DNA of 61,168 nt, filler included, from 8 parts of 8 records of this genome joined end to end with filler, not necessarily neighbours in it, one strand, 5' to 3'. Counted from the whole stretch's first letter, positions 6,326-56,449 are shown. Notes: generated from the sequence alone by a model not told the origin. Translations and numbers: made by a program.

Positions 6326-6425
6326 NNNNNNNNNNNNNNNNNNNNNNNNNNNNNNNNNNNNNNNNNNNNTTAATTAATTAANNNNNNNNNNNNNNNNNNN
6401 NNNNNNNNNNNNNNNNNNNNNNNNN
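6326..6425. other. Artificial contig linker (N run-TTAATTAATTAA-N run)
   Basis: All-frame stop linker; base composition shifts abruptly across it. Confidence 0.98.
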
Positions 6426-7933
6426 TTAAGAAACTACACAAATGGCCGGCAATAATAATTGCTTTTTTTGCCATCCTTTTTGCCATATCAGGAATAGTAA
6501 TGAACCACCGGGGAACATTTTCTGCGCTTGATGTTTCACGAAAAGTATTACCAAAAAATTATTCGTATAATAATTGGAACCTGGCAGCAGTTAGAGGCGC
6601 TGAACAAATAAACGAAAATACCTATCTAACATACGGAAATATTGGTATCTGGAAAACTACAGATTTCGAGACTTTTGAAAATTTCAACAAGGGTTTTCCC
6701 AAAGGCATTGATAACAGAAAAATATATTCCGTAAAGAAATTTGACAATCAGATTTTTGCAGGCACACATCTTGGTTTATATAAAAAACATTCTGAAAATA
6801 AAGATTGGGTAAAAGCAGACCTTCCTGTTAAAGAAAATCGCATTGCAGATTTGGGAATAAAGAACGACACGTTACTGGTTTTAACTCGTCATTATTTATT
6901 AAAATCTGTTGATGGAATTCATTTTGAAACTATTCAACTGCCCGCACCTGAAAATTATGAACACAAAACAGGTTTGTTCAATACTTTCTGGGAACTACAC
7001 AGCGGAGAGTTACTTGGAGTAACCGGAAAATTAATTGTTGATTTATTGGGAATTGTTACTATTCTGCTAGCAATAACCGGTCTTTTGCATTTCTTTTTTC
7101 CAAAATTCATAAAAAAGAAAAAAGAGAAATCTGCCGATTCTTTGAGACTGGTTTCAATAAAGAAGAAAAACCTGCAATGGCACAATGTAGTTGGGTATAT
7201 TTTTGTGTTTTTCCTGATTATCAATACTTTCTCAGGAATGCATTTACGCCCGCCACTATTAATTGCAATTGCCAATAAACAAGTAGGAATAATTCCCGGA
7301 ACACACATGGACAGTCCAAACCCGTGGTTTGATAAATTGCGCCGGGTAGAATGGGATGAAAATACTAAAATGTATATTTTTTCTACTTCAGAAGGATTTT
7401 ATTTTGCCGATGAATCTTTAACAAAAACATTACAACCTCCACTTTCTCAGCCGCCGGTTAGTATTATGGGCTGCAATGTATTAAAACACATCGGACACTC
7501 AAATTACCTGGTTGGTTCGTTTAGTGGCATGTTTTTATGGAATACCCAAACCGGGGCAATTGCCGATTTTTTCACACAAACCCCTTATGTGGAACCGGAA
7601 GGAATACAGAGCCCGGTTGCCGCAAACATGGTTGCCGGAATGGTGGAAGGAACAGAAACTTCATTTTGGTTCGATTATAATTCAGGAGCACAAAGGATGG
7701 CATCCCTCGGAGGGATGCCATCTTTCTACTTTCGCGAAATGCCGGATGAAATAAAAAAAGCATCGCCAATGTCGTTGTGGAATGTAGCACTGGAAGTTCA
7801 CACCGGGCGAATTTTTGAAAATATACTGGGCCCATTTTATATTTTGTATGTTCCCCTAGCCGGAATTTGTATTTTATTAGTATTAATTAGTGGTTCTTTA
7901 ATTTGGTGGAAAATATTTCGTAAAAAAGGGTAA
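6426..7933 (+). CDS. PepSY-associated TM helix domain protein (iron-regulated membrane protein type), 5'-truncated
   Basis: Frame is open from the contig start (KKLHKWPAIIIAFFAILFAISG); PepSY-TM His motifs LHKW, ELHSG, WHNVVG, EVHTGR. Confidence 0.8.
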
Positions 7934-15055: not shown

Positions 15056-15155
15056 NNNNNNNNNNNNNNNNNNNNNNNNNNNNNNNNNNNNNNNNNNNNT
15101 TAATTAATTAANNNNNNNNNNNNNNNNNNNNNNNNNNNNNNNNNNNNNNNNNNNN
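15056..15155. other. Artificial contig linker
   Basis: N run-TTAATTAATTAA-N run. Confidence 0.98.
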
Positions 15156-26037: not shown

Positions 26038-26137
26038 NNNNNNNNNNNNNNNNNNNNNNNNNNNNNNNNNNNNNNNNNNNNTTAATTAATTAANNNNNNN
26101 NNNNNNNNNNNNNNNNNNNNNNNNNNNNNNNNNNNNN
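26038..26137. other. Artificial contig linker
   Basis: N run-TTAATTAATTAA-N run. Confidence 0.98.
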
Positions 26138-26967
26138 ATACCCATACACCCGTGGAAGCCGCACGGCAGATCGCCCAAAGTCCCGTGGCGGACCTCCGGG
26201 AAATCCATCTCGTGGGGGGATGCCATCCCCATCTCGGGCTTGATTACTACACGGACATGCTGAAGGCCCTGACCCAAGCCAAATCGGGTCTGAAGCTCAA
26301 AGCCTTTACCGCGGTAGAAATTGATAATATGGCCTCACGGGCCGGTCTTTCATCTTTGGACTGCCTGAAGCAACTCAAAACTGCCGGTTTGTCGGCCATG
26401 CCGGGCGGGGGCGCCGAAGTCTTCTCGGAACGGGTCAGGAAAGCACTTTTCCCCAATAAGATTTCCGCGGACCGTTGGCTGGAGATTCATGGGGAGGCCC
26501 ATGGTTTGGGCATCGGCACCAATTCAACACTCCTCTTCGGCCATATGGAATCATTGGAAGAGCGGGTGATGCACCTGTTCCGATTGCGGGAACAGCAGGA
26601 TATTTCGAAAGGTTTCAAAGCCTTTATCGCCCTTCCCTTTCACCCGAAAAACACGCCTCTCGATCATCTGCCCGGACCTACCGGCGTGGACATTTTAAAG
26701 ACCATCGCCACGGCCCGGCTGATTCTGGATAACATCGATCATATGAAAGCCTACTGGGTAATGCTCGGTCCCAAGCTGACTCAGACGGCCCTTCACTTCG
26801 GCGCCGATGATCTGGAAGGGACCATTGTAAAAGAACGCATCGCCCACCAGGCAGGCGCCGCAACCGCCACAGGATTAACCCGGAAACGGCTGGTTGAACT
26901 TATCGAAGAGGCGGGGTTGGTGCCTGAACAGAGGGATACTTTCCATAAACCGATTCAAGAACCTTAA
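26138..26967 (+). CDS. mqnE: Aminofutalosine synthase (CofH/MqnE radical SAM family), 5'-truncated
   Basis: EIHLVGGCHP, KAFTAVEI, MPGGGAE, HMKAYWVM, GADDLEGT; directly upstream of mqnC. Confidence 0.85.
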
Positions 26968-26970
26968 AAA

Positions 26971-28056
26971 ATGACCTCATCCTTGCTGAAAGAAACCATT
27001 GAAAAAGCGTCACAGGGGCACCGGTTGGACACGGATCAGGCCCTGAGGTTGTACGAACAGGCGGATCTGCTCACCCTGGCTCGACTGGCCCAAAATGCCC
27101 GGTTCAGACACAACCCTGGCCTGACGGTCACCTACGCCGTGGACCGCAACATCAATTATACCGATATCTGTGTGTCCGGATGCGCTTTCTGCGCCTTCTA
27201 CAAAGAAAAGGACGACCCTGACGCCTATGTCATGGACCGGGAAACCCTCAACCGGAAATGCAACGAAACCCTTTCGCTGGGCGGTACCCAGATACTGTAT
27301 CAGGGTGGACTCAACCCAGGCCTGGACATGGCTTGGCATGAACAACAGGTGGCCTTCATGAAAAGCAAAGGCCTTCATGTGCACGGCTATTCCCCTCCGG
27401 AAATCGTGTTTATGGCCCAAAGGGAAGGCATCCCAATCCATGTGGTCATAGAACGGCTCAAGGAAGCGGGCTTGGGCTCAATACCGGGAGGGGGCGCCGA
27501 GATCCTTGTGGATCGGGTGCGACAAAAGATATCCCCCAACAAGGCATCCACATCCCAGTGGCTTGCGGTCATGGGCAGTGCTCACAACTTGGGTCTCAAG
27601 ACCACCGCCACCATGATGTTCGGGCATGTTGAAACCCTGGAAGAAAGAATTCTGCACCTTTCGGCCATTCGGGAACTTCAGGATGAAACCGGCGGGTTTA
27701 CCGCCTTTATCCCCTGGCCCTACCAGCCGGGAAAAAACACCCTATCCGGCCGGGCCCTGGGCGGCACCCCCTATTTACGAACCCTGGCCATATCCCGGAT
27801 CTTCCTGGACAATGTGCCCCATGTACAGGCATCCTGGGTTACCCAAGGGCATCATATCGGCCAGATCGCCCTTCATTTCGGCGCCGACGATATGGGCTCC
27901 ACCATGATTGAGGAAAACGTGGTGGCGTCAGCCGGGGTCAGAAACGCCATGACCCAATGGGACATTAAAAGGCTCATTGAGACCGCGGGCTTTGGGGCTG
28001 TTCAGCGGAACACCCTGTATGAGCCCGTGGAAAAGGGAAAAGAGGCTGCCCCATGA
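26971..28056 (+). CDS. mqnC: Cyclic dehypoxanthine futalosine synthase
   Basis: DRNINYTDICVSGCAFCAF, IPGGGAEIL, QASWVTQG, STMIEENVV. Confidence 0.9.
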   Translation: MTSSLLKETIEKASQGHRLDTDQALRLYEQADLLTLARLAQNARFRHNPGLTVTYAVDRNINYTDICVSGCAFCAFYKEKDDPDAYVMDRETLNRKCNETLSLGGTQILYQGGLNPGLDMAWHEQQVAFMKSKGLHVHGYSPPEIVFMAQREGIPIHVVIERLKEAGLGSIPGGGAEILVDRVRQKISPNKASTSQWLAVMGSAHNLGLKTTATMMFGHVETLEERILHLSAIRELQDETGGFTAFIPWPYQPGKNTLSGRALGGTPYLRTLAISRIFLDNVPHVQASWVTQGHHIGQIALHFGADDMGSTMIEENVVASAGVRNAMTQWDIKRLIETAGFGAVQRNTLYEPVEKGKEAAP

Positions 28057-29222
28057 TTCCCGTCATACACAGGGCCCGCTGGATCATGACCGAACCGGGC
28101 CGGTGGCTTGAAAACGGCTGGGTGGTGGTCAATGGCAACCGGATTTCTGAAGTAAGCCGGGGCAGCGTCTCACCCCCTGCCCATGTCCGGATCATAGACC
28201 ATGGAGACGGGATTCTCATGCCGGCCCTGGTAAATGCCCACACCCATATCTGCCTTTCCGGACGTGCCAGGCACCATGTATCCAAAGGGTTTACAAAATG
28301 GGTTGAGGCCGTGATCACGGCGCGCAACCGCCAAAGCCCTGAAGACGCAGCCCGGACCGTTCTGGACGGGGCAAAGGCCTTGAAGAACACGGGAACGGGC
28401 CTGGTGGGCGAATTCGGCCCCCATGTTCCGGTGGCCATGGCCTTGAAAATGTTACGCCTTCACGCAACGGTATGGCTCGAATGCCTTGGCAATGACCGTG
28501 ACCTGCCGTCGCTTCCCGAGAACACCCCGACCATCCGCCACGCCCACGGGGGACACGCGCCCCACACCACCAGCCCCACCCTGCTCAAGCGGGTCCAGAC
28601 GGCGGACGCCCGTCTGGGACAGCGGTTCTGTTTTCACCTGGCCGAATCCCGGGCCGAAGTGGAATTCCTTCAAACCGGAAAAGGGGAGTGGGCGGATTTC
28701 ATGACCCGAATGGGCATCGATTTTTCCCAATGGGGCTGTTTTGGAAAACGGCCCCTTGAGATGGCCCTTGAAAAAGGATTATTGGATCACAATACCCTGG
28801 CCGTTCATCTGCTGGAGATCACATTACGGGAAATGGAGAGATTTGCCCAAACGGGCGCCCGGGTCTGCCTCTGCCCCCGATCCAATTGGACGCTGCACAA
28901 GAAACTACCCAACATTGACGCATTCCTGAAGGCGGGTATTCAACCGGCCTTGGGCACCGACTCGCTGGCCTCCACTTCCACCCTCAGCCTCTTTGATGAA
29001 ATGCGGTTTATGGGCAAGCGCTATCCGGGTCTCAACCCCGACACCATACTGGGGTTCGGCACGGCAAACGGCGCAGTAGCCCTGGGTTGCCCGGAACTGG
29101 GGTCTCTTCGACCGGGAAACCAAAACCGCATGATTTACGTGGATCTGGACGTCATAAGCCCGAAACAGGCGGCGGAGGCGTTGGTCTTCACAAAAGACCT
29201 TGGCGTGCACCCTATTTTCTGA
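28053..29222 (+). CDS. Amidohydrolase family protein, probable aminofutalosine deaminase
   Basis: NAHTH, HAPH, HLAES, LAVH, GTDS metal ligands; overlaps mqnC inside the mqn operon. Confidence 0.7.
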   Translation: MIPVIHRARWIMTEPGRWLENGWVVVNGNRISEVSRGSVSPPAHVRIIDHGDGILMPALVNAHTHICLSGRARHHVSKGFTKWVEAVITARNRQSPEDAARTVLDGAKALKNTGTGLVGEFGPHVPVAMALKMLRLHATVWLECLGNDRDLPSLPENTPTIRHAHGGHAPHTTSPTLLKRVQTADARLGQRFCFHLAESRAEVEFLQTGKGEWADFMTRMGIDFSQWGCFGKRPLEMALEKGLLDHNTLAVHLLEITLREMERFAQTGARVCLCPRSNWTLHKKLPNIDAFLKAGIQPALGTDSLASTSTLSLFDEMRFMGKRYPGLNPDTILGFGTANGAVALGCPELGSLRPGNQNRMIYVDLDVISPKQAAEALVFTKDLGVHPIF

Positions 29223-29245
29223 TCACACAACATCACGAGGACATC

Positions 29246-30685
29246 ATGCCCTTTAAAAATCTTCAGGACCTGGTCAAGCACCTGGAAACCGAAAAACAGC
29301 TGGTTCCAATAAAAGAATCTGTGAGTCCCCACCTTGAGATTTCCGAAATCACGGACCGGGTGGTGAAAAAGAAGGGCCCCGCCCTCTTCTTTCAAAACCC
29401 GAAGGGTTACAACTTCCCGGTGCTGACCAACCTGTACGGCAGCTTGGAGAGGATCCGAACCATCTTCAATATCCAAGAACTGGATGACCTGGGCCTGGGC
29501 TTTGCCCGTTTTCTGGAGATCGCTCCGCCCAAAGGTTGGGTGGAAAAGCTGAAACTGCTGCCCAAGCTCAAGGAAGCGGCCAACATATTCCCCAAAACCG
29601 TGAAACGGGCACCTTGCCAGGAGATCATCAACACGGAAAGTCCGGACCTGACCCAACTGCCCGTGCTCACCTGCTGGCCCCATGACGGAGGCCCTTTTAT
29701 CACCCTCCCCGTGGTCATCACCCGTCATCCAAGAACGGGAAAACGAAATCTGGGCATGTACCGCATGCAGGTCTACGATAAAACCACCGCCGGTCTTCAC
29801 TGGCATGTACATAAGGACGGGGCCGACCATTACCGGGAGAGCTCTCCCGCGGAACCCCTTCCCGTGGCCGTGTCCCTGGGCCCGGACCCCGTCACCACCT
29901 ATTGCGCCACGGCGCCCCTGCCGGACGGAGTGGACGAACTGTTCCTTTCCGGTTTTCTGAGGCAGAAGCCGGTGGAAATGGTCAAATGCGTCACCTGCAA
30001 CCTGGAGGTCCCCGCCGAAAGCCAGTTTGTGCTGGAAGGGTACGTCACCCGGGGCGAACTTAAGACCGAAGGCCCCTTCGGAGACCACACGGGGTACTAC
30101 TCGCCGGCGGACGCATACCCGGTCTTTCACCTCACCGCCATGACGCACCGGCAGAACCCCATCTATCCCGCCACGCTGGTGGGATACCCGCCCATGGAGG
30201 ACCAGTGGCTGGGCAAGGTGACCGAACGGCTCTTCCTCCCCCTGATCAAACAGCAGATGCCCGAAATCGTGGACATGAACCTGCCGGTGGAAGGGTGCTT
30301 TCACAACTTGTGTTTTGTAAGTATCAACAAGCGGTATCCGGGTCACGCCCATAAGGTGATGCAGGCCATATGGGGCCTGGGGCAGATGATGTTCAGCAAG
30401 ATGATTTTCGTTTTTGACAAAGACGTGGATGTTCAGGATCTCTCCCAGGTGCTGTTTCACCTGGGCGGCAATGTGGATCCGGGCCGCGACATCACCATGG
30501 TCAAGGGACCGGTGGATGCCCTGGATCACGCCTCCACCCTCCCCCATGTGGGGAGCAAGATGGGCGTGGACTGTACCGCCAAATGGCCCACCGAAGGATA
30601 TGACCGGGGGTGGCCGGAATTGCTTCAAATGTCCCCTGATATCGTTGGTAAAATTGATAAAATCTGGAATAGGCTGGGGCTGTAA
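29246..30685 (+). CDS. mqnL: UbiD-family menaquinone biosynthesis decarboxylase
   Basis: RBS GAGG then ATG 29246; NLGMYRMQ, EGPFGDHTGYY, SKMGVD motifs. Confidence 0.88.
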   Translation: MPFKNLQDLVKHLETEKQLVPIKESVSPHLEISEITDRVVKKKGPALFFQNPKGYNFPVLTNLYGSLERIRTIFNIQELDDLGLGFARFLEIAPPKGWVEKLKLLPKLKEAANIFPKTVKRAPCQEIINTESPDLTQLPVLTCWPHDGGPFITLPVVITRHPRTGKRNLGMYRMQVYDKTTAGLHWHVHKDGADHYRESSPAEPLPVAVSLGPDPVTTYCATAPLPDGVDELFLSGFLRQKPVEMVKCVTCNLEVPAESQFVLEGYVTRGELKTEGPFGDHTGYYSPADAYPVFHLTAMTHRQNPIYPATLVGYPPMEDQWLGKVTERLFLPLIKQQMPEIVDMNLPVEGCFHNLCFVSINKRYPGHAHKVMQAIWGLGQMMFSKMIFVFDKDVDVQDLSQVLFHLGGNVDPGRDITMVKGPVDALDHASTLPHVGSKMGVDCTAKWPTEGYDRGWPELLQMSPDIVGKIDKIWNRLGL

Positions 30686-30687
30686 TC

Positions 30688-31524
30688 TTGAAAACCCTTT
30701 TTTCCCTCATCAAAATCGAACACACCCTCTTTGCACTGCCCCTTGCTTTTACCGGCGCGGTTTTAGGGTCCCGCGGACTGCCGCCGATCTTCGTGTTGCT
30801 CCTCATGGCGGTGGCATTCACCGCGGCCCGGGCCTCGGCCATGGCCTTCAACCGCATCGCCGACCGTCATCTGGACGCACAAAACCCGCGCACGGCCGAC
30901 CGGGAGATTCCGTCCGGGGCCTTATCCGTTTCCAGAGTCTGGGTGCTCATTATGGTGTCAATTGTGGTTTTCCTGGCGATATCATGGAGTATCAATCCCC
31001 TGTGCGGAAAACTGGCACCTTTCGCCCTTGCGGTGCTCCTGGGGTATTCCTACACCAAACGATTCACACACCTCTGCCACTACCTGCTCGGCCTGGCCCT
31101 GGGAATGGCCCCCGTGGCCGGTTGGATCGCCGTAACGGGCACATTCGCTCCGGCACCCATGGTTCTGGGTCTGGGCGTCATCTTCTGGACCGCGGGCTTT
31201 GATACCCTTTACGCCTGTCAGGACGTTGAATTTGATCGCACCATGGGGCTCCATTCCATCCCAGCCCGTTTCGGGACGAAAAAAGCGCTTAAAATAGCGG
31301 CCATAAGCCACGTGGCGGCGTTTTTATTCTTTATCATATCGGGCGCACTGGCATCTTTGGGGGTGGGGTTTTATCTCTTTTCATTCATCACGGGAGGTCT
31401 TTTGATCTGGGAACACCGGCTCATCACGCCCGATGATCTGACCCGCCTGGACATGGCCTTTTTCAAGGTCAACTCCATGGTTTCGGCAAGTCTTCTTCTG
31501 GCGGTCATTGCGGGTTTGTTTTAA
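30688..31524 (+). CDS. mqnP: UbiA-family prenyltransferase (menaquinone)
   Basis: IKIEHTLFALP, FNRIADRHLDAQNPRT, GFDTLYACQDVEFD. Confidence 0.88.
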   Translation: MKTLFSLIKIEHTLFALPLAFTGAVLGSRGLPPIFVLLLMAVAFTAARASAMAFNRIADRHLDAQNPRTADREIPSGALSVSRVWVLIMVSIVVFLAISWSINPLCGKLAPFALAVLLGYSYTKRFTHLCHYLLGLALGMAPVAGWIAVTGTFAPAPMVLGLGVIFWTAGFDTLYACQDVEFDRTMGLHSIPARFGTKKALKIAAISHVAAFLFFIISGALASLGVGFYLFSFITGGLLIWEHRLITPDDLTRLDMAFFKVNSMVSASLLLAVIAGLF

Positions 31525-36021: not shown

Positions 36022-36121
36022 NNNNNNNNNNNNNNNNNNNNNNNNNNNNNNNNNNNNNNNNNNNNTTAATTAATTAANNNNNNNNNNNNNNNNNNNNNNN
36101 NNNNNNNNNNNNNNNNNNNNN
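36022..36121. other. Artificial contig linker
   Basis: N run-TTAATTAATTAA-N run. Confidence 0.98.
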
Positions 36122-36380
36122 CTGCGCCCCATACGGGTGAACACCCGAATGCCCCCAGGGATATGCGGCGGCTGTTTTCGTCAGAATTTCAGAACCTGTG
36201 CTGGACAGGGATATGTACCTGGTTTCATGATTGGATCTTACCGGAAACCTGATGATGTCGGCCCTTGGATTGATCGATCAGGTATCTGGGATCAATATCA
36301 TTAAAGTCATCATGTTATCCGGCTATAAATCGGACGGGTTGGTCGGATATCATTACAAATGTGGAGATATCTGAATCCGT

Positions 36381-37640: not shown

Positions 37641-38513
37641 ATGAAAAATATTAATGGAAATTGGTCAGGGAGAATTACTGGTACTAATGCTGGTAATGTA
37701 TTTATTGAATTGCAACAAAACGATTCAAAACTTAATGGAATAGCAAGAATTAATGACACAACATTTGGAGTGGTTGTCTACAATTTTTCAGGAGAATTAA
37801 ACGATAATTCTATTTCTATTAATTTATTGCCGGATGGAAGCTCTTTGAATCAAACAGTGATGCAAGAAATTCTTGTAAATAACCAACCCGTCAAGATTCA
37901 AGCCCCAGTAATCAACTATGGGAATGTTAAACTCAATGGAAATCTTATAAATGAGAATACTATTGAAGGGACATGGCAATCAACAATAGGTACAGGCGGA
38001 AATATTTTTTTAACTCATCAGAGAACAAGTTCTTTAAATAAAAATCATGGAACAAATAAAGACAAAAAACAAAAAATGATTTTTATCAGTTACAGCCATG
38101 AAGATAAAGATCATTTAAAGAGATTACATGTCCATTTAAAACCACTACAAAAGAATGGATTGGTAAATGTGTGGGATGATACAAAAATTCAAGCAGGTCA
38201 AAAGTGGAAGGAAGAAATAGAGCTTGCATTATCTAAAGCTGCAATCGCAATTTTAATAATTAGTGCCGATTTTTTAGCATCAGATTTTATCATTGATAAT
38301 GAGCTTCCTCCAATATTACAGAAAGCTGAATTAGATGGGACGCGAATACTGCCTGTTATTCTTAAACCTTGCAGATTTTCGAGAGAAAAAAATTTGTCCC
38401 AGTTCCAAGCCTTGAATTCTCCAGATAAACCTATGCTTGCGATATCTGAGATAGAGCAAGAAGCAATCTGGGATAAATTATCGAATATAATTGAAACAGA
38501 GATAAATAGATAA
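37641..38513 (+). CDS. TIR-domain protein with N-terminal beta-rich domain
   Basis: C-terminal TIR: IFISYSHED, VWDDTKIQAGQKW, ISADFLASDFI..NEL (Glu at the catalytic position); N-terminal ~130 aa with GNWSG / GTWQS strands. Confidence 0.88.
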   Translation: MKNINGNWSGRITGTNAGNVFIELQQNDSKLNGIARINDTTFGVVVYNFSGELNDNSISINLLPDGSSLNQTVMQEILVNNQPVKIQAPVINYGNVKLNGNLINENTIEGTWQSTIGTGGNIFLTHQRTSSLNKNHGTNKDKKQKMIFISYSHEDKDHLKRLHVHLKPLQKNGLVNVWDDTKIQAGQKWKEEIELALSKAAIAILIISADFLASDFIIDNELPPILQKAELDGTRILPVILKPCRFSREKNLSQFQALNSPDKPMLAISEIEQEAIWDKLSNIIETEINR

Positions 38514-40035: not shown

Positions 40036-42858
40036 ATGAATAAGAAAGAAATACAAGTCCGCAATGGTTGTTGTGTTCGAACTGATAAAACTGATTTCGG
40101 AATAGTTTCAGAAGTTGATCCTTCCAATGGTTACATATGGGTTAAATGGTTTAAAAAAGGAACAGTAACAAAAGAGAACGAGGCTACGCTATATTGTGGT
40201 TTTCAAATCGGGATGGAGGTCCAGGACGTTCCTTTATCCAGAACAAGAACAACGTTGGGTGAAGGGATTGTTATTGAGTGCAGAAGGATTGGAAATAGGG
40301 AGCAGGTCCTTGTTGATTTTTTAGAATCAGGTGAAAAACATTGGCTTCCGTTTCAAAATTTGAAATTAATCGAAGGCGTTCAACAAAGGTTTGTGTTGAA
40401 CAAAATCGGAGGTGAAGACAATGCAGAACGATTCCGGCTTAGGAGTCTCGCCTATGCAATAGAAATCTGGAATGAGAATACCGGATCCCTGTCAAATTTA
40501 CACATAGACCCCTTGCCTCACCAGATTATGTTAGTTCACCATATACTGAAATCGGGTAATTTGAATTGGTTGATTGCTGATGATGTCGGGCTCGGGAAAA
40601 CTATAGAGGCGGGTATGCTGCTGTCAGCATTAATGCATCGCAAGAATTTCCGACGAATATTGTTAATTACTCCTGCAGGGCTAACCCGACAATGGAAAGA
40701 CGAGCTTCATTATAAATTCGGAATGAATGATTTTCGAATATACGGAGACGATTTCGTTATAAACGAACCAAGGGAGTGGAAACTTTACGACAACGTCATC
40801 GGTTCTATAGACCGGTTTAAATCTGAGCAACACGTTGATCTTTTAATACAATCCGGGAAATGGGATATTGTTATTTTTGATGAAGCACATTCACTGAGCC
40901 GAATTCAATATGGGATGAAATTTGAAAGTACCGAAAGGTTCAGGTTAGCGGCAAGTCTTAGAGCTCAAACAGATAATATTATCCTTTTGACAGCAACCCC
41001 CCACCAGGGAAAACAGGATAAATTTCAGGCACTACTTGAACTGTTGAGACCGGAGTACAAGACTGAAATTCGTAATATTGGGAATGATCCTGAAATTATC
41101 GGGGAGATGGTATACCGGAACAACAAATCTACAGTCACGGATATAGACGGGCAATTGATATTCCGGGGGAAGCATTCCAATTCAATTCCAATTAACCTGA
41201 CTCCTGAAGAAATTGATTTTGAAAGGCAGCTTGTAAAATACATTAAACGGGGTTACGAAGCCGGAAGAAAGAAAGGGGGGATGACAGGACGTGCTATTGG
41301 TTTTGTCATGACTATATATAGAAAACTTGCCGCTTCAAGCATCTCGGCAATTAGCACCGCACTTATAAAAAGATATACCCGGCTTGAAAAAAAAAGTATT
41401 GATACAGCAATAAACTCATATTTTCTGAACCAGGCGGATACAAAATATTACGAAAGTGAATTTGAAGAAAGTTTGGATACATCCGGGGCCGAATTCTTTG
41501 TCGGTGAGAAGGTACAGTTGGCCGAGCTGATAAAATACACGGAAATCATTCTGGCAGCGGAGAATAAGATATCCTTATTCGTGGACAATATTATCAAAGC
41601 AATCAAGAGCAAAAACGAAAAAGAGAAGATCGTTATTTTCACAGAGTATCTCGCCACGCAAAATGCGCTTTCACATTTGTTAGCCGAGGGATACGGATCG
41701 GAGTCAGTCAGCCTGATTAACGGTAATATAAAGCATGAGGAAAAAAGAGATGCTATCGAAGCATTTGAAGACCACGGTGATTTTTTAATTTCAACTGAAG
41801 CTGGCGGAGAAGGTATTAACCTTCACAAAGAATGCCACATCCTGATTAATTTTGATCTACCTTGGAATCCCATGCGAATCGTCCAGCGCATAGGTCGTCT
41901 ATACAGATATGGCCAAAAGAAAAAAGTTGTTGTTTTCAATATGTTTTCGCCTCAATCCTTGGACGGAAGCATTATGAGGCTTCTTTATCAGAGAATAGAT
42001 AGTGTTGTTAGAGATATGGCAATATTAGGCGGAGAATTTAAACCCGGATTGGAATCTGAGATTTTAGGTGAGCTTGCTGAATTCATTGATATTGATGAAA
42101 TATTGGAAAATAGCCTACAGGAAAATTTGAAACAAACTGAAGAAAAGATAAAGAAGGCAATAGAAAAAGCAAAGATTGCAATAAAAAAACAAAGAGACTT
42201 ACTTGAATATGCCTCGGGTTTCGATCCCGAGTCTGCTGCTGATGAGTTGAGAATTACAATAGATCATCTTAAATCTTTTGTCCAAGGTATGCTGGCCTAT
42301 ACGGAATGCGAAGTTGTTGACCAAAAACATAAAGGCGAAGTTTGGAAAATTGAGCTATCCGATAAGGTCAGAGACGAACTGAAGATCAGAAAACAATACC
42401 TACGTGTTACTTTTAATAGAGATATAGCACTAAGAAGCCGGGATGTTTCAATGATGGATCTGGATAATTCTTTTCTCCAATATCTAATAAAGACGGCAAA
42501 AGCGTATTCCTTCGACGGTAGAGTTTGCAGCCTGAAGGGTATTGATAAAAACGCCGTGGTAACTACCATGTTAAGATGGCAAAACGACCAAGGCCTCAGA
42601 ATGCGACAGGAATTTTTTATTTCCCTTGTTGGCGCGGACAACTCTGTAGAAGCTAACGGCAAAGAAATTTCCGAATGGTTGTTAAAGTCGTCTGAAATAA
42701 ACAGTCATCAAATCAAGTACTCGAAAGAGTGGACTATGCGACATTTTAAGGCTGCGTTACATTCAATGGACTTAAGGCTTTCTGAAATATGCAATACTGA
42801 GCTTCATCCGGAAAACAGGCAAGTGGTTAGTGCCGCTTTCGTTTCTGAGTATGAATAA
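40036..42858 (+). CDS. SNF2/RapA-DrmD-like helicase/ATPase
   Basis: PLPHQ, LIADDVGLGKTIEAG, FDEAH, LTATPHQG, STEAGGEGINL, LPWNPMRIVQRIGRLYR; N-terminal SH3/Tudor-like strands. Confidence 0.9.
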   Translation: MNKKEIQVRNGCCVRTDKTDFGIVSEVDPSNGYIWVKWFKKGTVTKENEATLYCGFQIGMEVQDVPLSRTRTTLGEGIVIECRRIGNREQVLVDFLESGEKHWLPFQNLKLIEGVQQRFVLNKIGGEDNAERFRLRSLAYAIEIWNENTGSLSNLHIDPLPHQIMLVHHILKSGNLNWLIADDVGLGKTIEAGMLLSALMHRKNFRRILLITPAGLTRQWKDELHYKFGMNDFRIYGDDFVINEPREWKLYDNVIGSIDRFKSEQHVDLLIQSGKWDIVIFDEAHSLSRIQYGMKFESTERFRLAASLRAQTDNIILLTATPHQGKQDKFQALLELLRPEYKTEIRNIGNDPEIIGEMVYRNNKSTVTDIDGQLIFRGKHSNSIPINLTPEEIDFERQLVKYIKRGYEAGRKKGGMTGRAIGFVMTIYRKLAASSISAISTALIKRYTRLEKKSIDTAINSYFLNQADTKYYESEFEESLDTSGAEFFVGEKVQLAELIKYTEIILAAENKISLFVDNIIKAIKSKNEKEKIVIFTEYLATQNALSHLLAEGYGSESVSLINGNIKHEEKRDAIEAFEDHGDFLISTEAGGEGINLHKECHILINFDLPWNPMRIVQRIGRLYRYGQKKKVVVFNMFSPQSLDGSIMRLLYQRIDSVVRDMAILGGEFKPGLESEILGELAEFIDIDEILENSLQENLKQTEEKIKKAIEKAKIAIKKQRDLLEYASGFDPESAADELRITIDHLKSFVQGMLAYTECEVVDQKHKGEVWKIELSDKVRDELKIRKQYLRVTFNRDIALRSRDVSMMDLDNSFLQYLIKTAKAYSFDGRVCSLKGIDKNAVVTTMLRWQNDQGLRMRQEFFISLVGADNSVEANGKEISEWLLKSSEINSHQIKYSKEWTMRHFKAALHSMDLRLSEICNTELHPENRQVVSAAFVSEYE

Positions 42859-42941: not shown

Positions 42942-43041
42942 NNNNNNNNNNNNNNNNNNNNNNNNNNNNNNNNNNNNNNNNNNNNTTAATTAATTAANNN
43001 NNNNNNNNNNNNNNNNNNNNNNNNNNNNNNNNNNNNNNNNN
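42942..43041. other. Artificial contig linker
   Basis: N run-TTAATTAATTAA-N run. Confidence 0.98.
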
Positions 43042-49129: not shown

Positions 49130-49820
49130 ATGGACCCTGTGTCATCCATAAAACCGGCGTTGGCCGTTTTAGTTTCCCTTCTGGCAGCGCCAATCCTGGT
49201 TTCAAGCCGTTCCCCCAATGTCAGGGAAGGATGGACCTTTGCCGCCGGCGCCGTGAAACTGCTCATTGTTCTGTCCCTCATCCCGACAGTAATGCAGGGC
49301 CGTGAAGTTGTATTCACTGCTTTCAAGGTTATACCCGGAATCAGCCTGGCCTTTCGCGTCGACGCCCTCGGTCTGCTATTCGCCCTGGTTTCTTCCAGCC
49401 TGTGGATCGTAACTTCCGCCTATTCCATCGGATACATGCGGGGATTGAGGGAACATTCCCAGACAAGGTACTATTGTTTCTTCGCTCTGGCTCTTTCCGC
49501 CACCCTGGGCGTGGCCTTTTCCGCCAACCTTTTGACCATGTACCTGTTTTACGAAATGCTTTCGTTTGCCACATATCCCCTGGTCACTCACCATCAGGAC
49601 GCGGAAGCCAGAAGTTCGGGGCGCAAATACCTGTTCTATATCGTGGGCGGCTCCATTGCCCTGGTTTTACCGGCCATGGTCATCTGTTATTTCAAAGCCG
49701 GAACCCTGGATTTCTCGAGCCAGGGTTTTCTGGCCGGTTCAGTCGACCGGTCAATGGCCGGGATTCTGCTCCTGATGTTCGTCTTCGGTTTGGCCAAGGT
49801 CGGTATTATGCCTTTTCATT
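49130..49820 (+). CDS. mnhD: Second MrpD-family antiporter subunit, 3'-truncated
   Basis: NVREGWT, FRVDALG, LFYEMLS..TYPLVTH, AKVGIMPFH. Confidence 0.85.
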
Positions 49821-49920
49821 NNNNNNNNNNNNNNNNNNNNNNNNNNNNNNNNNNNNNNNNNNNNTTAATTAATTAANNNNNNNNNNNNNNNNNNNNNNNN
49901 NNNNNNNNNNNNNNNNNNNN
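49821..49920. other. Artificial contig linker
   Basis: N run-TTAATTAATTAA-N run. Confidence 0.98.
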
Positions 49921-50288
49921 TTGCGGATGCGGCAGCACTCCTTGCGGTTCTCCAGGCTGTAATAGAAGGAGTTGGGCCCCTTGGCCTCCAGCAGCGCCTC
50001 CAAGGCCCGGGCGTCGGGACAGTAGACCCGAAAAGGAGCTTTCCACTTCAGCCGGGCCTGCTCCAACAGATCATAGCTCTCCTGAAAGAGACGGCCCGTG
50101 TCGAGGGTGAAGATCTCCACCCGGTCGCTTATCTTCCGGAGCATGTCGCTGATCACCATATCCTCCAGTCCCAGACTGGAGGACTGGACCAGCCTGTCCG
50201 CTCCATAGCTCCGGATGGCCCACCCAAGGATCTCCTGGGGGGTCATGTCAGCCGTTTCTTTGCGCAGAAGAGCCAGATCCGTCGTCAT
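49921..50288 (-). CDS. cysH: APS/PAPS reductase (Fe-S, APS-type), 3'-truncated
   Basis: SSLGLEDMV, FTLDTGRLFQESY, RKECCRIR (CC cluster ligands). Confidence 0.88.
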
Positions 50289-50292
50289 ACTG

Positions 50293-51579
50293 TCAGTCCT
50301 GAATATTCCTGTAGACCTTCTTGATCTTCTTGATGTCCTCTTCGGTCACAGAGTCCATCAGGTTCAGATCCTGCTTCATCTCCTTGAAGACCTCGATGGT
50401 CCTGCCGATCTCCGCATCCGTATGGGACGTGGTGGGGATCATGCGGAACATACAGAGGCCGGGGGGGATAACGGGATAAACGACGGCGGTCACGAATATG
50501 TTCTTGGTCCTCAGATACTTGACCATCTGCGCGCCCACGCCGTTCACATCGTCGCTTCCGGTGGGGGTGAACACGGAGCAGATGGGAGACTCGCCGGGTC
50601 CGATGTAGTAGCCCAGCTCTTTCAGGCCCTCCTTGAGTTTGCTGGAGTTGTCCCACATCTCCTTCCTTCTGTCATCCCCTTCGATGATAAAGTCCAGGGT
50701 TCTGTCCAGAGCCTTCACATAGACCATGGGGAGGCTCTTGGCGAAGACCTGGGTACGGGAGTTGAAGGCGATCCAGTCGATCACGTCCTTGTCGGCGGCC
50801 ACGAAACCGCCGATTGAGGCAAAGGCCTTGGCGAAGGTTCCGAAGTAGAGGTCGACCTTGTCCTGCACGCCGAAGAAATCGCCCGTTCCGCGGCCGGCCT
50901 CGCCCATAACGCCGACGCCGTGGGCATCGTCGATAAAGAGTCTGGCGTTGTACTTCTCCTTGAGCTCGCAGATGCCGGGCAGATCGGCCAGATCGCCGGT
51001 CATGCCGTAGACCCCTTCGATCAGGATCATGACCCCGCCCTCTCTCTTCTCGTTTACCTGCCTCAGAACGGACTCCAGATCCTTCATATTGTTATGCTTG
51101 AAGTAGCGGATGGTCGCGCCGGCGGCCTTGGCCATGGAGGCGGCATCCAGGATACAGGCATGGGCCAGACGGTCTACGATGACCGTGTCCTTGGGGCCGC
51201 AGAGGGAGGAAACGACTCCGAGAACCCCCATGTATCCGAAATTGAACAGATAGGCGGCCTCCTTCTGAGACCACTGGGCGAAGCGGGCTTCCAGGTCCTG
51301 GTGGAACTGGGTGTTTCCGCTCATCATCCTGGACCCCATGGGAGCGCTCGTACCGTACTCGCTGACAGCCTCTCCGGCAACGGCCTTGATCTCATCGTTC
51401 TCCGCCAGCCCTATATAGTTATTCACCGACCACATAACGACCTCGTTGCCGTTGTACTGCATGGTCTTGCCGGGGATCGGATCCATAGTGGGCCGGGTCA
51501 GGTCCTTCTCGCCCATCTTACGGAATTTTCCGAAGTAACCGGCATCGGTTTTGCATTTATCAAAGATATCAACACTCAT
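50293..51579 (-). CDS. Alpha-oxoamine synthase, CapB/SulA-like cysteate acyltransferase (SPT-related)
   Basis: WSVNNYIGL, PMGSRMMSG, NFGYMG, HACILD, DDAHG, GTFAK (PLP lysine), QVFAKSLPM; next to cysteate synthase. Confidence 0.75.
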   Translation of the reverse strand: MSVDIFDKCKTDAGYFGKFRKMGEKDLTRPTMDPIPGKTMQYNGNEVVMWSVNNYIGLAENDEIKAVAGEAVSEYGTSAPMGSRMMSGNTQFHQDLEARFAQWSQKEAAYLFNFGYMGVLGVVSSLCGPKDTVIVDRLAHACILDAASMAKAAGATIRYFKHNNMKDLESVLRQVNEKREGGVMILIEGVYGMTGDLADLPGICELKEKYNARLFIDDAHGVGVMGEAGRGTGDFFGVQDKVDLYFGTFAKAFASIGGFVAADKDVIDWIAFNSRTQVFAKSLPMVYVKALDRTLDFIIEGDDRRKEMWDNSSKLKEGLKELGYYIGPGESPICSVFTPTGSDDVNGVGAQMVKYLRTKNIFVTAVVYPVIPPGLCMFRMIPTTSHTDAEIGRTIEVFKEMKQDLNLMDSVTEEDIKKIKKVYRNIQD

Positions 51580-51679
51580 TTTTCAATCTCCTTGGATTTT
51601 TATATTCCTTTAATTCATAAAAAGCACGTTAAACAACAGAGCTGTCAAAAACCGAAAGATTTGAAACGACGGCGAGTCT

Positions 51680-52972
51680 TCAGCCCTGAAAAAGCTTTCT
51701 CACTTCCCTCACAACCGTTTCCGCGTCCGCATCCACAGGCAGGACAAGATCGGCCCGGGCGGCCGCCGTTTCGTGTTCTCTCCGGTACCGATCCATGCCG
51801 CCACCAGTGATATTAAGCATGACCGAAGCGTTTTTGTCCACCCGGCCCGATTCAACGGCCTTGACCAGAGAGGCGACCGCAACGGCTGCGGCGGGAGAGA
51901 TATCGATCCCCTCCTTTTCCAGAAAAAGAGCGCCCGCTTCCGAAGCTTCCCCGTTATCAGCCAGAAGGACATCTCCCCCCGTGGCTTCCAGGGCGTCGAA
52001 GAGCCCTCCCTTCAGGGAATAGGGGGGCTTGCGGTTGGTCAGAACCGAGGCGTTGACCGCATGGGCCTGGGCCCTGGCCTTTTCATCATCAAGGGGAACG
52101 AGGTCGCGGCTACCGGCCTTCCAGCTGTCATAGATCAACTGAAAGGGAGTGTTCTGGGAGACCATCAGCCTCATATTCGTCCCGCCGAATCGTCCGTCTT
52201 TCCGAAGCCTCATCGAGGCCTCCCAGGCGGCGATGGCGCCCGTGCCGCTGCCGACGGCCTGGAAGTAGTATTCGGGGATTTTCCCCATGGCGGTTGCGGC
52301 CGAGAGGACCGTCGTCCCCATGCCGTCCCGCCGGGCGGGATTCTTGGCCCCCCCTTCGGGATAAAAGCCCTCACCCCTGCAGAGCGTGCCTGACAGGGCG
52401 ATGGCGTCAAAGTAATCCGAACCGGCCTCGGCGGCGATGATCTTCACGCAATCCGCCCTCTCCCCATCGGACCAGAGGGCGTCAAGATTGTCCTCGGGGA
52501 CGCATACGACCAGAGGGATGCCGTTCTCGGAGCAGACCCGGACAAAGGCGCGGGCCGTATTCCCTGCGGAGGCGACAACGAGGACATCGTCCCTCTTCTC
52601 GGGGATCCGGGCGCACACCGCATAGGCCTCGCACTCCTTGAAGGTTCCCGTCCTCATAGCCGCACCCTTTTCGGGCCACCAGCCGTTGAAGGTGATCCAC
52701 AGGTCCCTCATCCCCAGCGCCGCGGCCAGTCCCTCGCTCTTATAGCTCACCGGCGAGGCGGATCCCTCAAGGGTGCGTCCTACGGGAAGCCAGTCGGAGA
52801 AACGGTACAGACCTTCCTCCGCCCCTCCCGCGTTCAGCTGGGAGGCCTCGTATTCGGCCCTGAGGAAATGGGGAGTCCCGCAATCGGGGCAGGAGAGGAT
52901 CCGTCCGTCGTCCTTCAATGATCTCCCGCAGCATCCGCCGCTCAGGGTATAGTGATTCAGGTTATTGCTCAT
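51680..52972 (-). CDS. Cysteate synthase (threonine synthase-like; CapA type)
   Basis: [64 protein letters not shown]. Confidence 0.85.
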
Positions 52973-54837
52973 TTTTCATCTCCAAAGACTTCCCAGTCTG
53001 CCATGATTCCATCGACCTCTTCCATATGGTCCGCCAGGTTTTCCGGCTTCCTTATATGCCAGTCCGGCTCAAGATCGGTGACGATGTCCTTTCCCACCCA
53101 GATGGTCCTGAGTCGGGAAGACCCTATGAGGAGCTGGATCCTGTCCCTCTCTTCCTCGGTCAGACTGTCGATCTTGACGATGAAGAACATCCCGGCGTCC
53201 AGCATGATGCGTGAGATCTCGGAGATCCTCCTGATGTGCTCCTCCCGGATAACCGGCCTCCGCCGGAGGGCCCCCCTGAGGTCCGCGTCCAGTCCGTATT
53301 GCAGGCTCTTGTATCCCAGATAGTAGACCGTTTTCCCCAGGCTGAAGAGTTTCTTCTCCAGCTGTTCGGCAAATTCCTTCTTGCCCCCGCCCAGTTCCCC
53401 TGAGACGAGGATCAGGGCCGGTCTCTGGCCATAGCGTTCCATCCGGTCCAGCTCTGTGATCACGCCGTTCTCCCACTCCAGGTTGCGGCGGACCATCTTC
53501 TCGCTGTCCTCGTACTGCCTCTGATCCTCCATCCCGCGGATGATCCCGCCTCCGGCGATCTCATATTCGTCCACAAGGACGAAACGGCTTGTCTGGGGCA
53601 GGTCCATAACCAGATCGAAGGCCACCGGCTTCTGAAGGGTCAGGACGCATTCGGCCACATCATGCCTTTCCACCTGCTCCTTGCGGTTATGCGCGTCCAG
53701 GGAAGAGGCGTCTATCACCTTCAGGATTTCGGTCAGCCGGCAGCGCAGCTTGGAGGTCCCTGTCTTCAGATAGTACTCCCTGCCGGGAACAAGAGGCTTC
53801 CGGCCCAGCCAGAAGAGGCTTACCTTCAGGCAGTTGCCCACCAGGGGAGCCCTCTCGTCAACCCGGCAGGCCAGGGCGCCCCGGCTGAGGTAGATCTGCT
53901 CTTCCATGGTGAATCCCGTGGCCGCTCCGGCGCGCACCTCTTTGACGGGGGGAGTGTTAAAGCTCTCAATGGTTTTGACCCGGCTCTTCTTCCCGGACGG
54001 GTAGAAGATGATCTCATCCCCTTCGCGAAAACTGCCGGTCTCCAGGGTACCGGCTACGATCCGCCGCTTATCGTCGAAGCCGGTGAACTTGTAGATATCC
54101 GTTACGGGCATCCGCATGGGCAGCTTATCCAGGGATTCCCCCTTTTCGAAGCGGTCCAGAAGCTCCAGAACGGTGGCGCCCTTCCACCAGGGCATCCTGT
54201 CCATCCGGGTGTGGACATTGTCTCCCTCCCTTCCGCTGACGGGAATAAACTCCACATCGGCGAGCCCGATAGAGCGGAGGAAGCGGCTGAAGCGCCGGAC
54301 GATTCTGTTATAGACCTGCTGGCTGTAATCCGCCAGGTCCATCTTATTGACGATGACGCAGACCTGTCGGACCCCCAGCATGGCCAGAAGGTAGCCGTGC
54401 CGCCGAGAGTTCTCCTGAATGCCTTCGTCCGCATCGATGACCAGGAACGCCGCCTCGGCGCGGGCGGCGCCTGTGATCATATTCTTGAGAAACTCGATAT
54501 GCCCGGGGGCGTCGATAATGATATAGTCCCTCTTGTCGGACTGGAAAAAAACACGGGCCGCGTCAATGGTGATGCCCTGGGACTGCTCGTCCTTGAGGGC
54601 ATCCAGAAGGAAGGCGTACTCGAAGGGCTTGGAGTTCCGCTCGCAATCCCGGCGGACCTGTTCCAGTTTCCCGTCGGGCAGGCTGCCCGTATCGGCCAGA
54701 AGCCGCCCCACCACCGTCGACTTCCCATGATCCACATGGCCGGTGAAAACGATGTTCATCTGCTGACGCCGATTGTCCTCTCGCCCGCCGTCCTGCTGCG
54801 CGCTATCCCGCAGCTCCCGCTTGTTCTGCATATTCAT
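52969..54837 (-). CDS. cysN: Sulfate adenylyltransferase subunit 1 fused to a degenerate APS-kinase domain
   Basis: [25 protein letters not shown]-terminal CysC-like domain with altered motifs. Confidence 0.88.
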
Positions 54838-55718
54838 CACATATACCCGTCCCGTCTCAGGGTTTCCAGACCGCCGCCGTCATCCTTGTCCTGAGCCCTG
54901 CCGGAACGCTCGGCGATGTTGGCGAATTTGCCGGTTTTCAACTCTTCTATGATCTCCCGGACATTCCCGGCATCCGACTGCACGGGAGTGGTGCAGGGGC
55001 CGCAGCCCAGGGAGCGGTAGCGCTCGCCCGAGCCCTGGTTGTAGTAGAGGGATACGGTGGGGATGCTCTCCCGTTCGATGTACTCCCATATATTCGTCTC
55101 CGTCCAGTCCAGAAGGGGATGGATCCTCACATGGCTTCCGGGTGCGAAATCGGTCTTGAACTGATTCCAGAACTCGGGAGGCTGGTCTCCCACATCCCAG
55201 ATATTCTCCTTGTCCCGGGGACTGAAATAGCGTTCTTTGGAACGGGAGCCCTCTTCGTCGGCCCGTACCCCGACGATGACGCCGGTGTACATCTCGCTGT
55301 CCCCATCCTCTTCATAGCGGTCGGTCTCATGGTTGAAGCGGTAGCGGGTCCAGCTGCCGTTGAGGGTGTTCTTCAGGGCCTCGGCCTTGAGAAGGCGGCA
55401 GCAGGTCAGACGATCGGCATTGCCGTCGGGGAATGTCTGTTTCGCTCCCAGGGCCTCCCTGTTCTGGCCATAGACCATGGGAAGCTTCCACTCCCTGGTC
55501 AGCCGGTCCCGGTACTCGATCATCTCGGGAATCTTATAGCTCGTGTCGATGTGTACAAGGGGAAAGGGGACATGGCCGTAAAAGGCTTTACGGGCAAGCC
55601 AGAGAAGTACGGTGCTGTCCTTGCCTATCGACCAGAGCATGCACAGGTTCTTGAAATTGGCGTAAGCTTCCCGGAGTATCCGGACGCCGATGGCTTCTAA
55701 TTGATCCAGTTGGTCCAT
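54837..55718 (-). CDS. cysD: Sulfate adenylyltransferase subunit 2
   Basis: [54 protein letters not shown]. Confidence 0.92.
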
Positions 55719-55787
55719 GCATAACAATAAATAGGAGTTCCTGATTCTGTCAAAACAAATGGGCTTATGTTAATAAATCTTAATCTG

Positions 55788-55887
55788 NNNNNNNNNNNNN
55801 NNNNNNNNNNNNNNNNNNNNNNNNNNNNNNNTTAATTAATTAANNNNNNNNNNNNNNNNNNNNNNNNNNNNNNNNNNNNNNNNNNNN
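55788..55887. other. Artificial contig linker
   Basis: N run-TTAATTAATTAA-N run. Confidence 0.98.
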
Positions 55888-56399
55888 GGGGGGGCCACGA
55901 TCATCAGGTTGAATGTCGCAAGGTGGAGGCGGTCCACCTCCTTTACCGGGTTGTCGCCCAGGAAATAACCGGCATCCTGGGTTTCGGATTTGATTTCCTG
56001 GAGAATGTCGCCTGACATGGCCTGGGTGATCTTGAACTGGATTCCGGGATATTGGGGGTGCATCCAGGCGAAGAATTCCCGGGTCCTGAGAAATTCAGGA
56101 TCGGAGTTCAGGCCGATGGTGAGATCGCCGGAAAGATCCTGTTTGAGTTCCTTGGCATGGTTCAAAAAACGGGTGCCGGCCTCCAGGATTCGCTGGCCGT
56201 CTTCCTTGAGGGCGAGGCCGTGGCGGGTCAGCTCCATGCCCTTGGGACTCCGGTTGAAAAGGGGGAGTTCCAGTTCCTCTTCCAGGGCCTTAATGTGGGC
56301 GCTCACGGCCGGCTGGCTGGTGTTCAGGCGCCTGGCCGCCCGGGTGAGGGTCTTTTCCTCGGCAACGGTGACAAAGGTCCGAAGCTGGTAGAATTCCAT
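55888..56399 (-). CDS. LysR-family transcriptional regulator, 3'-truncated
   Basis: MEFYQLRTF..TRAARRLNTSQPAVSAHIKALEEEL..LF.R. Confidence 0.93.
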
Positions 56400-56412
56400 G
56401 GGGGCTGTCTCC

Positions 56413-56449
56413 ATCAGAAATCGTGAACATGGATATCAGATCATACAAT
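56413..56449. promoter_or_regulatory. LysR-type T-N11-A boxes
   Basis: TCA-N7-TGA at 56414-56426 and a second T-N11-A at 56436-56448, in the divergent intergenic region. Confidence 0.45.

Follow-up and report, generated by a model that had tools for sequence, protein, structure and literature searches.

Can a bacterium outside Bacteroidota convert sulfate into the sulfonated long-chain base on which capnine-type sulfonolipids are built? Such lipids have been described mainly from that phylum and are currently treated as its marker. The question is raised by five genes on the minus strand at 49921–55727 of a 61,168-nt stretch of DNA (the window, whose numbering is used throughout): cysD, cysN, a cysteate synthase gene, the gene of a 428-aa alpha-oxoamine synthase (AOS), and cysH. 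Judged from the encoded proteins, we put the probability at roughly three in four that they form a self-contained operon of a marine-type, Oceanispirochaeta-like spirochete leading from sulfate to this base. An earlier note on the window had described five co-oriented genes with overlaps or gaps of 100 bp or less, and the open reading frame (ORF) coordinates agree, the first two junctions being overlaps of 4 nt each, the third a gap of 100 nt and the last a gap of 4 nt. The gene identities it proposed also stand, both on family models and on relatives with solved structures.

The AOS (50293–51579, minus strand) is a pyridoxal 5′-phosphate (PLP)-dependent homolog of the cysteate C-fatty acyltransferases (CFATs) of the CapB/SulA type, with a 148-bit match to Pfam Aminotran_1_2. 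In phmmer comparisons with the PDB it scored 339.6 bits against 28eh_A, the cysteate-C-fatty acyltransferase of Capnocytophaga ochracea, and 312.4 against 7u7h_A, SulA of Alistipes finegoldii. The corresponding values were 223.8 for serine palmitoyltransferase (SPT; 3a2b_A), 215 for Kbl (3tqx_A) and 157.1 for BioF (8dle_A and 1bs0_A), so that the two solved cysteate acyltransferases lead the best SPT by about 90–115 bits and Kbl and BioF by more. Annotation pipelines label the protein 'glycine C-acetyltransferase'. That label would suit a reading of the locus as ordinary assimilatory sulfate reduction, in which cysteate is an intermediate or side product (toward taurine, coenzyme M or an osmolyte) and the AOS is an unrelated SPT, BioF or Kbl. 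Curated NCBIfam models speak against it, since the AOS falls below the cutoffs for Kbl (300.6 of 460 bits), BioF/Kbl-related proteins (299.8 of 535.4), BioF (295.4 of 426.45) and all three SPT families (SPT-CFB, 297.6 of 640; SPT-beta, 286.9 of 500; SPT-alpha, 208.4 of 670). No NCBIfam model is passed either by the AOS or by P0245, our proxy for the Bacteroidota CFATs, and membership in the CFAT group therefore rests on solved structures, signature residues and phylogeny.

The signature residues come from two papers. The crystal structure of a PLP-cysteate aldimine in the Capnocytophaga enzyme, COCFAT, defines a cysteate pocket of Phe113-Gly114-Tyr115, Cys141, Glu187, Phe245, Ala249, Gly81-Ala82 and Met277-Phe278 within a fold that superposes on SPT at a root-mean-square deviation of 1.56 Å (Pang et al., PMC13692747). 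Lys281 is described as the one clear active-site difference of SulA from SPT, which has Ala there (Radka et al., PMC9304779). Between the two enzymes, COCFAT Lys250 corresponds to the Schiff-base lysine SulA Lys251, and COCFAT Lys280 to SulA Lys281 (PMC13692747, PMC9304779). Mapping by PDB alignment and by a 58-row alignment, with residue roles taken from the same papers, places in the AOS N53, G82-S83, F114-G115-Y116, H140, C142, E188, D217, H220, F246, T248, A250, K251, V278, F279 and K281. The Schiff-base lysine, K251, coincides in the alignment with the catalytic Lys in both 28eh_A and 7u7h_A and is invariant (58/58 rows). Lys281 is found in every spirochete row (23/23) and every Bacteroidota CFAT row (8/8), whereas the position is Ala in SPT-like rows (9/9), Thr in BioF (5/5) and Ser or Thr in Kbl (3/3); the AOS thus carries Lys rather than the Ala, Thr or Ser that the assimilatory reading would predict. 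Other CFAT-type residues also recur among the spirochete rows: [F/Y]GY in 23/23, Cys142 in 20/23, Glu188 in 23/23, Phe246 in 22/23 and Ala250 in 23/23. Bacterial SPT, as exemplified by the Sphingobacterium multivorum enzyme (PDB 3A2B), shares the AOS fold and chemistry and the residues N53, H140, D217, H220, T248 and K251. In contrast, the SPT-like rows have Ala281, Ser142, Asp188 and Ser250, and TG[F/Y/M] (SGY in one row) in place of [F/Y]GY. Overall, the AOS pocket is of the CFAT type except for two conservative changes, S83 in place of Ala and V278 in place of the Met of COCFAT.

A careful maximum-likelihood tree (58 rows, 429 columns) leads to the same assignment. Its rows were picked from 150 representatives and the homolog match lists, the remainder being left out. 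The characterized CFATs themselves lie outside the tree, and the Bacteroidota CFAT clade is represented by P0245, which reaches 541 bits with SulA and 519 with the CapB structure and has near relatives in Tannerella, Petrimonas, Paludibacteraceae and Porphyromonadaceae. Five BioF and three Kbl rows pass their NCBIfam cutoffs, and nine rows are termed SPT-like because SPT-CFB is their best model, below its cutoff (at most 625 versus 640). The AOS falls within a spirochete clade of 23 rows (support 100/99). This clade joins first P0242, a Rhodothermaceae fusion protein described below (88/68), then P0246 (93/91), then the Bacteroidota CFAT clade (98/88) and finally two further fusions (100/97). 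The resulting CFAT-like superclade of 41 rows is split from the SPT-like, Kbl and BioF rows at 100/99. An approximately unbiased (AU) test of a group chosen after the tree had been seen rejected a single clade of spirochete and SPT-like sequences (delta lnL 118, p 1.4e-8). SPT, at 224 bits against 340 for the cysteate acyltransferase, is therefore separated from the AOS by score, clade and AU test alike, and with Lys281 and the subthreshold scores this led us to discard SPT, Kbl and BioF as identities. The earlier note had called the 428-aa enzyme a CapB/SulA-type protein; the phylogeny, together with Lys281, bears this out, and the sequence data support its assignment as a relative of these cysteate fatty acyltransferases.

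The closest relatives of the AOS outside spirochetes are P0242, P0243 and P0244, proteins of 1,049–1,127 aa that combine an AMP-binding, fatty acyl-AMP ligase (FAAL)-like domain, a carrier domain (ACP, acyl carrier protein) and a CFAT-type domain with Lys281; the P0242 cluster includes a protein from a Rhodothermaceae metagenome-assembled genome (MAG). The C-terminal domain of these FAAL-ACP-CFAT fusions (about 1,050–1,130 aa) is 50% identical to the AOS (465 bits), has the CFAT signature residues in common with it and, in the case of P0242, is grouped with the spirochete clade at the 88/68 node. The fusions hold their own acyl-activating and carrier domains, whereas the spirochete enzyme stands alone, and its acyl chain must therefore come from ACP or CoA. 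These relationships bear on a second alternative, that the operon yields cysteate and a cysteate-derived amino-ketone, for example a sulfonated signal molecule or natural product with a short or odd chain, minor or conditional, and no membrane sulfonolipid. In its favor, the spirochete AOS clade is separate and the AOS 42% identical to P0245, sequence cannot tell acyl-chain specificity, and AOSs such as CqsA make signals, the CAI-1 synthase being among the PDB matches at ~100 bits. On the other side, the first-shell CFAT residues are all retained, and the nearest non-spirochete relatives are the fusions, one from Rhodothermaceae. Unusual sulfonolipids are reported from Salinibacter (PMC2329653), which, with those fusions, points to long-chain acyl donors. 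We consider this alternative unlikely, and return to it with the lipid data.

The partner of the AOS, a 430-aa PLP enzyme encoded at 51680–52972 (minus strand), scored 480.5 bits on the cysteate_syn equivalog TIGR03844 (cutoff 324.9). Against the PDB it scored 511 bits to 9k3c_A, 'Cysteate synthase', and 49.6 to the best threonine synthase. Homologs that are 60–61% identical and named cysteate synthase come from Odoribacter, Porphyromonadaceae and Culturomica, and the closest organism-named relatives are Spirochaetales and Bacteroidales, with no archaea among them. By family model, at equivalog level, this enzyme is a cysteate synthase, predicted to convert O-phosphoserine and sulfite to L-cysteate. 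Cysteate synthase was originally connected with the making of coenzyme M by methanogens, whose enzyme belongs to the same equivalog family, and this link, mentioned in PMC12019592, is a further argument for the assimilatory reading. The coenzyme M route continues by an aminotransferase and a decarboxylase; in the spirochete operon, by contrast, the downstream partner is an acyltransferase, and the two genes adjoin in 5/5 loci (the window contig and the four related loci L001–L004 described below). All sequence tests that could be applied put this enzyme pair in the CapA/CapB (Cys/CFAT) system.

The remaining genes would supply sulfite. CysD, the small subunit of sulfate adenylyltransferase (54837–55727, minus strand), comprises 296 aa if begun at TTG 55727; an in-frame ATG at 55718, the end coordinate in the earlier note, is an alternative start. 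It passes NF003587 (335.6 bits, cutoff 195), matches Pfam PAPS_reduct and is 95% identical to its L001 ortholog. CysN, the 623-aa GTPase subunit of ATP sulfurylase (52969–54840, minus strand), passes TIGR02034 (339.4 bits, cutoff 336.1). An APS-kinase-like domain at its C terminus (approximately residues 451–587) aligns with profile positions 2–108 of 152 of Pfam APS_kinase at 43.4 bits, where APS denotes adenosine 5′-phosphosulfate. This tail reads GELGGGKK and LGYK in both the window (52969–53500) and L001 (8100–8638), at sites where APS kinases carry the P-loop GxxGxGK[ST] and LDGD. The tail thus looks catalytically degenerate in sequence and, instead of acting as a kinase, may persist as a remnant with a regulatory or structural role. 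With the bifunctional CysNC model NF004035 at 438.6 (cutoff 715), apsK at 46.5 (cutoff 138.7) and the P-loop not intact, we rejected annotation of the protein as CysNC. Because the tail has neither the P-loop Ser/Thr nor the DGD, APS and not PAPS is the likely product.

The window holds the 5′ part of cysH (49921–50288, minus strand), 122 codons of about 235 for an Fe-S type APS reductase, which stops there because the contig ends at 49921, a contig boundary rather than a gene end. The fragment covers profile positions 14–130 of 244 of NF002537, and its final residues, ENRKECCRIR, display the CC pair that the earlier note had taken as the mark of a CC-type CysH. So truncated, with the CC pair as its only motif, it scores 70.3 on TIGR02055 (cutoff 235.3). 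The 235-aa L001 ortholog, 80% identical over the fragment, passes this APS_reductase model (244.3 versus 235.3) and has CC, CAPC and ECGLH. By way of this full-length ortholog, the window gene is assigned to the Fe-S, predicted thioredoxin-dependent APS reductases (CC...CxxC).

CysD, CysN and CysH belong to the same three families as standard assimilatory cysDN-cysH sets with Fe-S APS reductases, the CC, CxxC and ECGLH motifs of L001 CysH included, and this is an argument for ordinary assimilation. Two differences stand against the likeness: the spirochete operon pairs these genes with cysteate synthase in place of sulfite reductase and cysK, and its CysN tail appears inactive. The earlier note had stressed that no sulfite reductase or cysK lies among the five genes. 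Since the contig holds the operon alone, this absence carries no weight by itself. Neither gene occurs in or next to the operon in 4/4 related loci, a statement about these neighborhoods only, as the genomes outside the loci were not searched. Taken with the family cutoffs, Lys281, the AU test and the constant pairing of cysteate synthase with the AOS, these observations make the assimilatory reading highly improbable.

A scan of genomes with the AOS returned five loci, of which four are close relatives: L001 (Oceanispirochaeta sp., 5.0-Mb contig, AOS 95% identical), L002 (Spirochaetales), L003 (Oceanispirochaeta sp., 4.5-Mb contig) and L004 (Spirochaeta sp. UBA5339). The fifth, L005, a 28% AOS match in a Campylobacterota MAG, was left aside and not used. 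All four (4/4) have cysD, cysN, cysteate synthase, AOS and cysH in identical order, which supports an operon of exactly five genes. The proteins of the window contig are 81–95% identical to those of L001, and the contig aligns with this locus over its whole length (5,873 columns, 83.5% nucleotide identity). Among the best 120 homologs of the AOS (58–92% identity), eight are named by organism and all eight are Spirochaetota. The suggestion of a host outside Bacteroidota, possibly a spirochete, was therefore sound, and on sequence identity the host is an Oceanispirochaeta-like spirochete. Eight matching source-contig sizes are common to the AOS and cysteate synthase match lists, down to AOS relatives of 69–73% identity, a weak hint that the pairing extends more widely.

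The composition of the window requires that this be weighed against an artefact of assembly or concatenation, or a contig contributed by some Bacteroidota organism in the same sample. The window was indeed put together artificially from eight contigs, whose GC contents span 0.36–0.59, by way of N44-TTAATTAATTAA-N44 linkers. Reading of the sequence and a scan for N-runs located seven of these, at 6326–6425, 15056–15155, 26038–26137, 36022–36121, 42942–43041, 49821–49920 and 55788–55887. At least one of the other contigs resembles Bacteroidota DNA: the GC 0.36 contig at 6426–15055 encodes (8113–11973, minus strand) a leucine-rich-repeat protein of 1,286 aa whose C terminus is a Por_Secre_tail domain, a type IX secretion sorting domain suggestive of Bacteroidota and hence of a window that mixes organisms. 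Taxonomy must therefore rest on the operon contig alone, one entire contig of 5,867 bp (49921–55787, GC 0.587). The linkers at its two ends (49821–49920 and 55788–55887), which join it to unrelated contigs, fall outside the five genes, and the operon recurs within the 5.0-Mb and 4.5-Mb Oceanispirochaeta sp. contigs. The end-to-end alignment with L001 and the four related loci refute a chimeric contig, and we give an artefact of any of these kinds almost no credence.

From these assignments a five-step route can be proposed. CysD and CysN would form APS from sulfate and ATP, and the Fe-S CysH, assigned to its family through the L001 ortholog, would free sulfite from APS. Cysteate synthase would then join sulfite to O-phospho-L-serine to give L-cysteate, and from cysteate and a fatty acyl-ACP or acyl-CoA the CFAT homolog would presumably form 3-ketocapnine in a condensation that releases CO2. 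Reduction to capnine and N-acylation would proceed through unlinked genes, as in Bacteroidota. With sulfate activation and APS reduction in one unit, the cell would therefore have a private sulfite source, an arrangement that would suit an anaerobe drawing its cysteine sulfur from sulfide. Sulfate activation may be dedicated to sulfonolipid synthesis, and the product is probably a membrane sulfonolipid.

The Bacteroidota systems, CapA-CapB of Capnocytophaga ochracea and SulA/CFAT of Alistipes finegoldii, are built on the same two committed enzymes, cysteate synthase and CFAT. As in the spirochete pair, capA and capB are neighbors, judging by consecutive accession numbers in PMC12927429. CapB and SulA further share with the spirochete AOS the PLP fold, the Schiff-base lysine, the SulA-Lys281 signature, the pocket residues and an unlinked reductase. 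They differ from it in host phylum, here Spirochaetota, in the separate enzyme branch of the spirochete proteins, and in Ala and Met where the AOS has Ser83 and Val278. The spirochete operon additionally contains cysD, cysN and an APS reductase gene.

Several observations weigh against reading the locus as a sulfonolipid operon. Ser at AOS position 83 is the SPT state, where Bacteroidota CFATs have Ala, and position 278 is Val rather than the Met of COCFAT. CysN passes its model by just 3 bits, and the group rejected by the AU test was defined after the fact. L001–L004 are closely related (AOS 87–95% identical), and common synteny among such close relatives therefore shows a real operon, not independent evidence for functional linkage. 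No candidate short-chain dehydrogenase, reductase or N-acyltransferase occurs within 10 kb on either side in L001, L003 and L004. The earlier note had seen no CapC reductase, and extension through the relatives confirms this, no short-chain dehydrogenase/reductase lying within that distance; the other contigs of the window hold no 3-ketocapnine reductase or N-acyltransferase either. A locus so equipped favors the amino-ketone alternative. In known producers, on the other hand, the reductase is unlinked: in Alistipes finegoldii the KCR genes are spread out and do not cluster with cfat and Cys (PMC11211663), and capA, capB and capC of Labilibaculum lie megabases apart (PMC12927429). A missing reductase at the locus therefore counts as normal.

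Lipid data were found for one species of the genus. Chains such as iso-C13:0 and iso-C15:0 are of the kind borne by capnines. Both are among the major fatty acids of Oceanispirochaeta piezotolerans M1T/M2 (G+C 42.8%), whose intact polar lipids are given as cardiolipins and glycolipids in PMC11129491. The word 'capnine' is absent from the supplementary tables of this paper, although the same laboratory and paper report capnines in Bacteroidota. This also counts against a sulfonolipid product and is a point that the amino-ketone alternative can claim from a studied Oceanispirochaeta. RefSeq genomes of unclassified Oceanispirochaeta include the protein of P0005, WP_114629604.1. The same supplement contains 0 occurrences of the P0005 RefSeq/GenBank accessions or of sulfate adenylyltransferase, and does not settle whether O. 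piezotolerans has the operon. Conditional lipid production would explain a published Oceanispirochaeta lipidome with no capnine.

A wider proposition follows, which we hold at even odds: capnine-type sulfonolipids would not be a speciality of Bacteroidota and Rhodothermota, and a large clade of free-living Spirochaetota would have a private line from sulfate through sulfite to cysteate that bypasses sulfide assimilation, making the lipids perhaps only under conditions unused in culture (sulfate present, phosphate scarce). In the AOS clade, at least 120 protein clusters share 58% identity or more with the window enzyme, and those that bear an organism name are all spirochetal. In a literature survey, largely without subscription journals, none of PMC11129491, PMC11052126, PMC12019592 and PMC2329653 connects spirochetes with sulfonolipid, capnine or cysteate synthase; prior mention elsewhere is possible. 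Two surveys of the human microbiome spread loose homologs over 13 and 21 phyla, while the enzymes they prioritize are mainly from Bacteroidota (PMC11211663, PMC11525784). Sulfonolipids have been linked, as PMC11211663 and PMC13692747 summarize, to gliding motility, choanoflagellate development and host immune signaling. If the proposition is true, more organisms would carry sulfonates in their membranes, as biomarkers and as signaling lipids, and anoxic marine and sediment habitats would have an additional organosulfur sink, from sulfate to C-SO3 lipid. The operon would offer a clean genetic handle, since five genes should suffice for a heterologous host to form 3-ketocapnine from sulfate and phosphoserine. 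It also adds a divergent CFAT set, with 42–50% identity to P0245 and the FAAL-ACP-CFAT fusions, on which recent structural rules of cysteate recognition could be tested.

The surroundings of the operon can be described from the relatives. Within the operon, the one sizeable gap (51580–51679, minus strand, 100 nt by ORF coordinates), between the cysteate synthase and AOS genes, measures 73 nt in L001. Upstream lie leuA and leuB, followed after leuB by a strong terminator-like hairpin with a 13-bp stem (L001 5616–5644) and a promoter-like TTGACA-18-TATTGT match (L001 5860–5889), both identified by consensus; over L001 5400–12800 such scans returned 7 promoter-like sites where 4.4 are expected and 11 terminator-like sites where 7.0 are expected. 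No Rfam family reached its gathering score over L001–L004 (76,766 bases), and the scan hence showed neither riboswitch nor leader for the operon. L002 keeps the five-gene core between different flanks: upstream it has a 3-kb insertion, downstream a Glt symporter. The insertion, between leuB and cysD in this locus only (L002 3072–5654), encodes an AAA_14/DUF4143 ATPase and a 428-aa protein without a family match.

About 600 bp downstream of cysH in 3/4 loci lies a gene for a fusion of E1 alpha, E1 beta, lipoyl and FabH (KAS III) domains without an E2 catalytic domain, 1,123 aa in L001 (12624–15995, plus strand) and also present at L003 12322–15588 and L004 12262–15765. In the Atlas, an E1beta-lipoyl-FabH cluster of 130 members is mostly from Spirochaetota and a lipoyl-FabH cluster mostly from Planctomycetota. 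The fusion may feed branched-chain primers straight into fatty-acid synthesis.

Within the window, ORFs are cut at the linkers on both sides of the operon contig: MrpD (49130–49820) and LysR (55888–56414), as well as cysH itself (49921–50288). The linkers place the MrpD and LysR fragments on other contigs, and they therefore provide no genomic context for the operon and were dismissed as its neighbors. Two further contigs carry gene groups of their own. The GC 0.38 contig at 36122–42941 encodes a 290-aa TIR-domain protein (37641–38513, plus strand), with a zinc-ribbon protein and an SNF2-family helicase of 940 aa (40036–42858, plus strand) close by; the group could be a defense-type cluster. 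On the contig at 26138–36021, a series of CofH/MqnC-like radical SAM proteins is encoded with an amidohydrolase, UbiD and UbiA (26152–31524, plus strand), which looks like a cluster for the futalosine route to menaquinone or for a related prenyl-quinone.

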